From Escherichia coli (GTDB lineage: Bacteria; Pseudomonadota; Gammaproteobacteria; Enterobacterales; Enterobacteriaceae): a stretch of 64,000 nucleotides of DNA. Location: the NCBI RefSeq assembly GCF_051903065.1, contig NZ_CP178438.1. One strand, given 5' to 3'. Made by a program: the position numbers and the translations under genes. The notes under the pieces were generated by a model, which worked only from the letters and a program-made list of their open reading frames with translations, did no database searches and was not told the origin of the DNA. The first letter of the stretch is position 1. Every line of letters begins with the position of its first letter. Positions 61,342-62,238 of this stretch are shown piece after piece.

Positions 61342-62238
61342 TTTGTAGGCCTCGATACATCAGGGACTCCAAATTACGTTATAGATAACAACAGCAAACC
61401 AGCCCAGCGCAATACGATCATCGGTCTCTATGGCGAAATTAACGGGAACGGGATGGTAAGGGGGCCTTGGACAATTCTTGGTGCCAGAGCGCAATATAGT
61501 AGCTGGGTATCAACCATTGACCATATGTCACACCTAATCGGCACCGATGCTACAGCAGGTAACCAGGGGGGGGATACCTTAAGCGCATCAGTAAACAACC
61601 TCTGCCCATCTGGCGACTGGTCATTACTTGATGGTGTTCTTGGCGCTCCAATTGACTATCAGCTACAAGTAGTACCAGCAGAGGCATTGGTTAAAACTGA
61701 TGTAATTGAGCCTTCTGGTGTTGGAAGAGCATTTGGTGTGAATGCTGCAAGCGCCCAATGCAAGATAGTGGTTAACCTGACCAGAGCTAACACAGATTTT
61801 ATCAGGGGAGCATTCTATTGGTGGGGCGATGCTCCATTACAGATCGCATTGGAGACACAAGATAATTCAAATCAGATTTTCTTTCAGCCAGACAAATACT
61901 TTGGCATGAACCATGGAGGCTGGAGGCTTTACAGAATATCTGCCCCTACAAACGACTGGACCAAGGCATACCGTTTGGCAATCACGATATCATCTGGGAA
62001 GTCAGGATTCATAGGTGGTTCAATTTTTAGTTGTTATCAGGCCTCCCTTCTCCCTACTTTTTGTGGATGGAGGCATGTAAAAGTTCTGTCATCGGGTAAG
62101 CCAACAATCACTAACACTTCAGGTTTCGTAAATGGCATCCAGGCACACAGAACCTCTGTGCCATCATACCCAGGGGACCCTACGGTAATGTGGGTATGGA
62201 ACGGAACCACTTGGCTTACAGTGAATGCTTCTGCATAA
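61342..62238 (+). pseudogene. 5'-truncated phage structural gene, possibly tail fibre / tailspike C-terminal domain
   Basis: Frame is open from the IS boundary to the stop at 62238 with no plausible start context at the junction; Gly/Ser/Thr/Asn-rich beta-type composition; sits immediately before the gtr cassette. Confidence 0.4.

Follow-up and report, generated by a model that had tools for sequence, protein, structure and literature searches.

Results

Genes and features around the open frame

The window, i.e. the whole stretch of 64,000 nucleotides of Escherichia coli DNA that was analysed, contains near its right end an open frame that is bounded by an insertion sequence (IS) on the left and by a gtrC-type gene on the right. 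The order of the genes in this region is ybhC, att core, int 3' part, IS, tailspike 3' part, gtrCBA, att core and ybhB, and the features that lie within the window are collected in Table 1. The frame ends with the TAA codon at 62236-62238 and upon translation of the window is open back to 61336. The nearest upstream in-frame stop, the TAA at 61333-61335, is situated within the right terminal repeat of the IS. A sequence-only reading of this DNA had described a frame of about 300 codons that is open from the IS onwards. As homology to a full-length tailspike gene begins exactly at the IS end at 61339 (see below), 299 tailspike-derived codons are present in the window, and the other five frames of 61339-62238 are riddled with stops (10-18 each). 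The C-terminus that had been quoted, ...GDPTVMWVWNGTTWLTVNASA, agreed with the translation of the frame. The richness in Gly, Ser, Thr and Asn that had been pointed out is moderate: together these residues amount to 34.8%, whereas two neighbouring housekeeping proteins already reach 27-32%.

Table 1. Position of the features at the right end of the window.
Feature	Position	Strand	Basis or remark
att-lambda core GCTTTTTTATACTAA, 15 bp, left prophage junction between ybhC and int	59279..59293	+	one exact match in window
Lambda-type tyrosine integrase 3' part, 256 codons, 5' end cut by IS	59367..60138	-	Pfam, phage comparison, PGAP
IS481-family insertion sequence, 1201 bp	60139..61339	+	recurrence elsewhere, Pfam, PGAP
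Tailspike gene 3' fragment	61339..62238	+	codons 351-649 of 650-codon gene, 299 aa plus stop
PGAP 261-aa 'hypothetical protein' WP_104773342.1	61453..62238	+	starts at internal Met of tailspike frame
G8 homopolymer inside fragment, codons N-Q-G-G-D	61566..61573	+	in frame; L005 has G9
Hairpin GGTGGC-TAG-GCCACC, predicted intrinsic terminator of gtrC	62244..62258	-	T-run on minus strand
gtrC-type serotype-specific O-antigen glucosyltransferase gene, 535 aa, DUF6056/GT_STM0557_N, intact	62266..63873	-	PF19528 E 3e-66
gtrB 3' end (GT2 bactoprenol glucosyltransferase), runs off window	63873..64000	-	L001 14532-15449

The transposase gene of the IS (60241-61281, 346 aa) matches the Pfam families HTH_29 and rve_3/rve and is labelled IS481 family transposase by PGAP. 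The terminal inverted repeats read TGTATTAG... at 60139 and ...CTAATACA, its inverted copy, at the right end. In other E. coli genomes the complete unit was found in unrelated sites at full length and with 99.6-100% identity, which makes the boundaries of the IS secure. The earlier placement of the boundary at 61342 was correct to within 3 bases; the recurrence of the IS and the point where homology to the metagenomic contig L005 starts put the true edge 3 bases further to the left, at 61339. The two genes that flank the IS, int on the left and the tailspike fragment on the right, are unrelated, and a search for a target-site duplication in the window sequence next to the IS was negative. This implies that the IS marks a deletion junction. 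The genomes that carry the fragment hold a second, identical copy of the IS, which in NZ_CP083585.1 occupies 1,760,999-1,762,199. The deletion appears to have been IS-mediated, with adjacent deletion or recombination between two IS copies as possible mechanisms.

On the other side, the fragment had been reported to converge with a gtrC-like gene, and this gene is indeed a 535-aa DUF6056 gene on the minus strand (Table 1). Its start is overlapped by 1 base by gtrB, which shows 83.5% identity to gtrB of Cronobacter phage ENT47670. In L001 and L002, genomic loci identical to this one, the annotation continues downstream with gtrB and gtrA, and an att core lies beyond gtrA. Hence a gtrA (GtrA_DPMS_TM), a gtrB (GT2) and a variable polytopic gtrC are united in one operon beside an att site, which is what characterizes a gtrABC cluster. 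A close relative of gtrC was not found in 50,697 phage records; the phage matches of the gtrC region, to Salmonella phage S.Kent 1-2-1 (~77%) and to gene 20 of epsilon34 (~70%), comprise ~10% of the query at the gtrB/gtrC junction. With a GC content of 35%, gtrC is very AT-rich; the tailspike fragment has 47% and the core genome on either side 50%.

The stop codons of the two convergent genes are separated by a gap of 27 bp that encloses the hairpin at 62244-62258, the sole terminator-like site in 61100-62500. It had been suggested that both genes share this hairpin as a terminator. It does lie in the gap that they have in common, but the T-run is present on the minus strand only, so that it represents a canonical terminator of gtrC and, from the side of the fragment, no more than a bare hairpin.

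The open frame is the 3' part of a 650-codon gene

A full-length counterpart of the parental gene was identified on L005. Window positions 61339-64000 align with positions 7381-10043 of this contig with 97.8% nucleotide identity over 2,663 bases. The counterpart of the fragment (L005 7381-8281) is the end of a gene of 650 codons, the C-terminal 299 residues of which are 98% identical to the fragment, and the 5' portion that precedes the position equivalent to the IS end of the window measures 1,050 bases. Behind the gene come a 535-aa gtrC with the length and position that gtrC has in the window, gtrB (Glycos_transf_2) and gtrA (GtrA_DPMS_TM), i.e. the same cluster. The full-length homologue that was to be sought in related prophages is therefore the 650-codon gene of L005 beside gtrC-gtrB-gtrA. 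Compared with this homologue, 350 of the 649 codons are gone from the window, the break being the last base of the IS; the absence of the 5' end had been correctly perceived.

The gene of L005 reads through 650 codons after removal of one extra G from a G9 run (7607-7615), which in the contig splits it into ORFs of 435 and 230 aa. In the repaired protein, the N-terminus was assigned to PF18668 Tail_spike_N (E 8e-19) and to tail fibre/spike families of PHROG (E down to 9e-55). All three near-full-length relatives from Logan assemblies (L005, L009 and L006) are frameshifted. In L009 the frameshift is found at a G7 run at ~510-520, in the 'WGGGSYWN' region, and in L006 at ~11385-11410 near 'EPGGCGRY', in a version that is present in 10 contigs. 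These frameshifts could result from real pseudogenisation in degraded prophages, from poly-G slippage or from assembly error. As to the substitutions between the fragment and L005, 13 out of 23 crowd into the last ~60 bases (window 62136-62196), the rest of the 2.6-kb alignment being nearly uniform. The pattern points to a recombination patch of small size, or to a C-terminal end at which the sequence is locally relaxed or diversifying.

Predicted structure of the fragment and of the full-length L005 protein

The AlphaFold2 (AF2) monomer model of the fragment, calculated from an alignment of 33 sequences, had a mean pLDDT of 91.8 and a pTM of 0.85. According to this model, 61339-62238 encodes the last rungs of a beta-helix, visible as short stacked strands in residues 1-~55, and after a linker region a CBM-like beta-jelly-roll domain (~95-240) and a short beta region that closes the chain. 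In the AF2 monomer model of the repaired L005 protein, the anchor (1-~140) is disordered or of low confidence, the beta-helix extends from ~190 to 401 with a pLDDT >90 and the same C-terminal domains come after it. Residue 351, where the gene is broken, belongs to the helix. Consequently, the window copy has lost the anchor together with roughly three quarters of the helix and retains only the last ~50 residues (2-3 rungs) of the right-handed parallel beta-helix seen in the full-length model, plus the CBM-like C-terminal domain. In tailspikes such as those of P22 and HK620, the active sites and binding grooves are usually located in the helix.

The best fold matches of the full-length L005 model in the PDB (5w6h, 8iq9, 7xyc, 6c72 and 2vji) are all tailspikes. 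The tailspikes matched by fold were CBA120 TSP4 (E 4.5e-11), K2-2 TSP, Kp7 gp52, Fri1 gp49, HK620 and CBA120 TSP3. Because the global TM-scores were low (0.2-0.3), these matches support the architecture and not a close relationship. A fibrous tail fibre of the lambda Stf or T4 gp37 type was rejected, as the PHROG match had an E value of 0.1 only and the model is globular, with helix rungs and a jelly roll. Of the earlier proposal that the fragment is the receptor-binding part of a tail fibre or tailspike, the tailspike of the beta-helix type thus remains; it is not a fibre, and it is not a whole receptor-binding body.

Relatives of the fragment and their virion anchors

Taken alone, the fragment gave no significant match in Pfam (best Cmr7b-like, E 0.22), in PHROG (best 'short tail fiber', E 0.1) or among PDB sequences (best sorting nexin, E 1.7), and a megablast search against the 50,697 phage records yielded no match. 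Its identification therefore rests on the full-length homologues and on the fold. With tblastn, the phage records contained a match to the Kuttervirus Escherichia phage CBA6 (E 7e-59, 44% identity over 96% of the fragment) and besides this only a weak one to a Vibrio phage. The CBA6 match consists of the C-terminal 290 residues of a 675-aa ORF in an unannotated record. This ORF bears PF18668 (E 9e-29) and belongs to a group of four consecutive large ORFs that have N-termini of the tailspike type. The same helix-end plus jelly-roll module was recognized in an 868-aa 'hypothetical protein' of a Vibrio podovirus, phage vB_ValP_FGH (L004, 6684-9290), with 26% identity (E 2e-5) and an extra C-terminal extension of ~130 aa, which indicates that the module extends beyond phages of Enterobacteriaceae.

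A search of 5.8 billion proteins returned nine clusters only, with E values from 1e-188 to 1e-42. Cluster P0009, which is encoded on L005, shares 95% identity with residues 1-80 of the fragment and bears PF18668 (Tail_spike_N), and cluster P0008 bears PF09008, the P22 tailspike head-binding domain. The fragment is 56% identical to a tailspike with this head-binding domain, and the PF09008-bearing homologue of L006 is located downstream of P22 gp20/gp16-type injection protein genes. With HMMER, 28 relatives at E <= 1e-3 were found among 1.84 billion cluster representatives; most of the matches listed are 510-868 aa long and aligned in their C-terminal half, and PHROG tail families dominate. The alignment revealed one conserved body, reaching from about '...PELQxxRWRDD' to the C-terminus, that is joined to virion anchors of three types (PF18668, Kuttervirus TSP and P22 head-binding). 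Swapping of receptor-binding modules between anchors is typical of tailspikes. The module is genuinely rare and clearly associated with phage tails, and it may define a rare, so far unnamed C-terminal receptor-binding domain family that has three anchor types and no Pfam or PHROG model. The similarity to phage structural proteins on which the sequence-only reading depended is clear in L005, in CBA6, in the P22-headed relative and in the tailspikes of the fold searches.

The lack of a Pfam or PHROG match of the fragment alone, the likeness of its best-defined domain to CBMs of bacterial glycoside hydrolases and the presence of WceF, a bacterial tailspike-like protein, among the fold matches would also suit a bacterial, non-phage enzyme that degrades or binds polysaccharides with a beta-helix plus CBM, in the manner of WceF-like biofilm glycanases, and that has come to lie beside phage genes by chance. 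However, all full-length relatives possess one of the three virion-anchor N-termini, one of them belongs to the set of four tailspike genes in a sequenced Kuttervirus genome, another is preceded by genes for injection proteins of the P22 gp16 and gp20 types, and the window copy itself is found inside a prophage remnant flanked by att sites. Virion anchors and phage context essentially refute a bacterial enzyme, which is extremely unlikely.

The parental gene of the fragment exhibits the features of a beta-helix tailspike that can be tested: an N-terminal virion-anchor domain in the relatives (L005, CBA6 and L006), the helix, a beta-sandwich C-terminal to it and a context of tail genes. The window copy sets in at codon 351 and lacks this anchor. 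The sequence in the window is thus derived from a tailspike but unable to encode one that can be attached to a virion. The parental protein probably bound or cleaved O-antigen.

A prophage remnant at the lambda attachment site

A second exact copy of the att core of Table 1 lies 6.3 kb further, between gtrA and ybhB and past the end of the window, in L001 and L002; two such matches were obtained in 0 of 100 shuffles. Next to the first core, the int fragment matches Phage_integrase (E 4e-41) and part of Phage_int_M, is described by PGAP as 'incomplete; missing N-terminus' and shows 98% nucleotide identity to int of the phages 434, HK97, HK106 and 2B8. The 6.3-kb island therefore consists of the two ends of a prophage, the interior of which has been deleted. 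Three more damaged genes were noticed at and beyond its right end, past the end of the window: an 84-bp pseudogene fragment between gtrA and the second att core (L001 15962-16045), a frameshifted InsQ/TnpB-family gene between ybhB and bioA (L001 16944-18060) and, in strain 23CRST027, an internal stop in ybhB (L002 16359-16835).

The fragment and gtrC occur, 100% identical, in 3 of 5,426 complete E. coli genomes (strains ECNB21-M121, 23CRST027 and 23CRST031), one of which is from meat in China and two of which are human isolates from Ecuador. An intact prophage with such a tailspike was not found in the complete E. coli genomes with the fragment, gtrC or the 5' half of the L005 gene as queries. 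If the tailspike gene were merely interrupted or rearranged, e.g. by an IS-mediated inversion, its 5' half would be located elsewhere in the genome and could be rejoined, and the second identical IS copy of the carriers could be the other end of the inversion. The 5' half (1050 bp) of the L005 gene, however, had no substantial match in any of the 5,426 genomes, the three carriers included, which means that the 5' part was lost and not moved. Moreover, the left flank of the IS is int and not tailspike, and the island between the att cores measures only 6.3 kb. A rearrangement is extremely unlikely.

L005, a contig of 13.9 kb with flanks that are ~83% identical to E. coli, is itself a reduced prophage, in which int, a few early genes and holin pieces are directly followed by the tailspike gene plus gtrCBA. 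In L006 the order is int-xis, gp20/gp16-type injection genes, tailspike and a gtrC of the Glucos_trans_II type. Loss of the prophage middle with preservation of the tailspike-gtr end (L005 and L006/L007/L008) seems to be recurrent.

The annotated 261-aa ORF

In the RefSeq/PGAP annotation the stump is labelled an ordinary hypothetical protein, whereas the neighbouring int fragment is correctly flagged as incomplete. An in-frame start with a good ribosome-binding site had been mentioned as the mark of a complete small gene. Such a gene could start at ATG 61453 and encode a stand-alone CBM-like carbohydrate-binding protein, expressed e.g. via read-through from the transposase gene, which has the same orientation as the fragment and is separated from it by no terminator. 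The frame is intact, and the predicted C-terminal jelly-roll domain would be complete in the product. The SD-like pairing upstream of the ATG amounts to -5.4 kcal/mol and is close to that of gtrC (-5.5), but it is weak to moderate and is matched or surpassed at ~15-20% of the ATGs picked at random from the window. The similarity to the 650-codon gene, 97.8% at the nucleotide level, does not begin at this ATG but reaches back another 38 codons, as far as the end of the IS. Its Met is a Lys in most homologues of the alignment and is positioned inside the helix of the AF2 model, so that the product would be expected to start in the middle of a beta-helix rung. A sigma70-like promoter was not found between the IS and the ORF. 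As for the short matches in the protein searches, those followed into their DNA context proved to be parts of longer tailspike genes: P0001 represents the distal portion of a gene with a frameshift, and the others come from short contigs and begin inside the conserved body. ATG 61453 is probably not the start of a gene and the 261-aa protein of PGAP appears to be an annotation artefact; that a complete small gene would begin here is very unlikely.

The frame of 61339-62238 contains no internal stop or frameshift, and the dN/dS of the fragment is 0.17 versus L005 and 0.09 versus L009; synonymous sites are saturated at the 3' end. As the sequences diverged before the truncation or independently of it, and the carriers are 100% identical, dN/dS is silent on the present-day constraint of the stump and reflects selection in phage lineages. 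With a low dN/dS and an intact frame, decay is not demonstrable by sequence alone, since the same pattern is expected after a recent truncation. The fragment is best regarded as a recent, not yet decayed pseudogene fragment. Expression of the 261-aa product by read-through from the transposase gene is possible, but the stump is probably not expressed as a useful protein. There is little chance that read-through in combination with ATG 61453 provides a soluble 261-aa jelly-roll protein, which might bind host O-antigen and serve, e.g., as a decoy for phages with that receptor or modulate the gtr-modified surface.

Discussion

The open frame next to gtrC is, with high confidence, the dead 3' remnant of a tailspike gene from a temperate phage whose integration site was that of lambda, between ybhC and ybhB. 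The parental gene of ~650 codons would have specified an O-antigen-binding and probably O-antigen-cleaving receptor-binding protein, of which the last 299 codons were kept. The intact prophage may have had the order attL - int - xis - ... - tailspike -> <- gtrC gtrB gtrA - attR. The whole of its interior is gone, and the IS481-family element is found at the junction that joins codon ~100 of int to codon 351 of the tailspike gene. Survival of gtrABC can be explained by its usefulness to the host (serotype conversion and phage exclusion), whereas the tailspike stump survived only because it is situated between the deletion endpoint and gtrC.

The fragment should be filed as a 'tailspike gene fragment (pseudogene)', neither as a tailspike nor as a fibre, and WP_104773342.1 is to be flagged in RefSeq as a tailspike pseudogene fragment. 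It is ordinary genomic debris beside a still-intact O-antigen modification operon. The remnant illustrates the erosion of a temperate phage to gtrABC, the one operon from which the host benefits; the deletion scar carries an IS, and half of a tailspike gene is left as a fossil. The fragment also records a receptor-binding module that was once paired with a rare DUF6056-type gtrC. Provided that gtr modification, by the usual logic, blocks the tailspike of the phage itself, the fragment gives a pointer to the O-antigen modified by this GtrC. With podovirus-type, PF18668-type and Kuttervirus anchors, and 28 representatives in 1.84 billion, the module is a clean example of tailspike module exchange. 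Here, this rare receptor-binding module resides in a prophage remnant of the textbook type.

The C-terminal domain can be compared with the beta-jelly-roll families CBM4, CBM16, CBM22 and CBM61, although the sequence identity is only 7-12% and a Pfam CBM match was not obtained; sugar binding is putative. In tailspikes, CBM-like domains are part of the trimer and not free modules. With respect to the Kuttervirus (ViI-like, Ackermannviridae) tailspikes, the closest relative of the fragment, L005, has a different N-terminal anchor, and the likeness to CBA120 TSP4 (PDB 5w6h) is structural only, with 11-14% identity. The specificity of the 675-aa TSP of CBA6 is not documented in PMC3184105.

Chromosomal gtrABC operons mostly belong to prophages, which may be anything from intact to highly degraded (PMC2629481), and the tailspike gene of BTP1 (STMMW_03901) is convergently transcribed next to the gtr operon (PMC4413052). 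In P22-like prophages (P22 gene 9, BTP1), too, the tailspike gene converges with gtrC-gtrB-gtrA on the side of attR, and int occupies the opposite end (PMC4413052, PMC2629481); one relative of the fragment bears the P22 head-binding domain PF09008. Unlike in these prophages, only the last 46% of the tailspike gene is present here, the integration module is of the lambda type (att-lambda; int 98% identical to 434/HK97) and GtrC is of the DUF6056/STM0557 type. To P22 gp9, the receptor-binding body shows no detectable sequence similarity (no PDB sequence or Pfam match). The STM0557-0559 remnant of Salmonella LT2 likewise has an intact gtrABC while the rest of the prophage is lost, and its GtrC also belongs to PF19528, named GT_STM0557_N in one release (PMC2629481). 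Unlike the LT2 remnant, the present one resides in E. coli at att-lambda, has preserved both att cores, carries an IS at its deletion junction and is rare, being present in 3/5,426 complete genomes.
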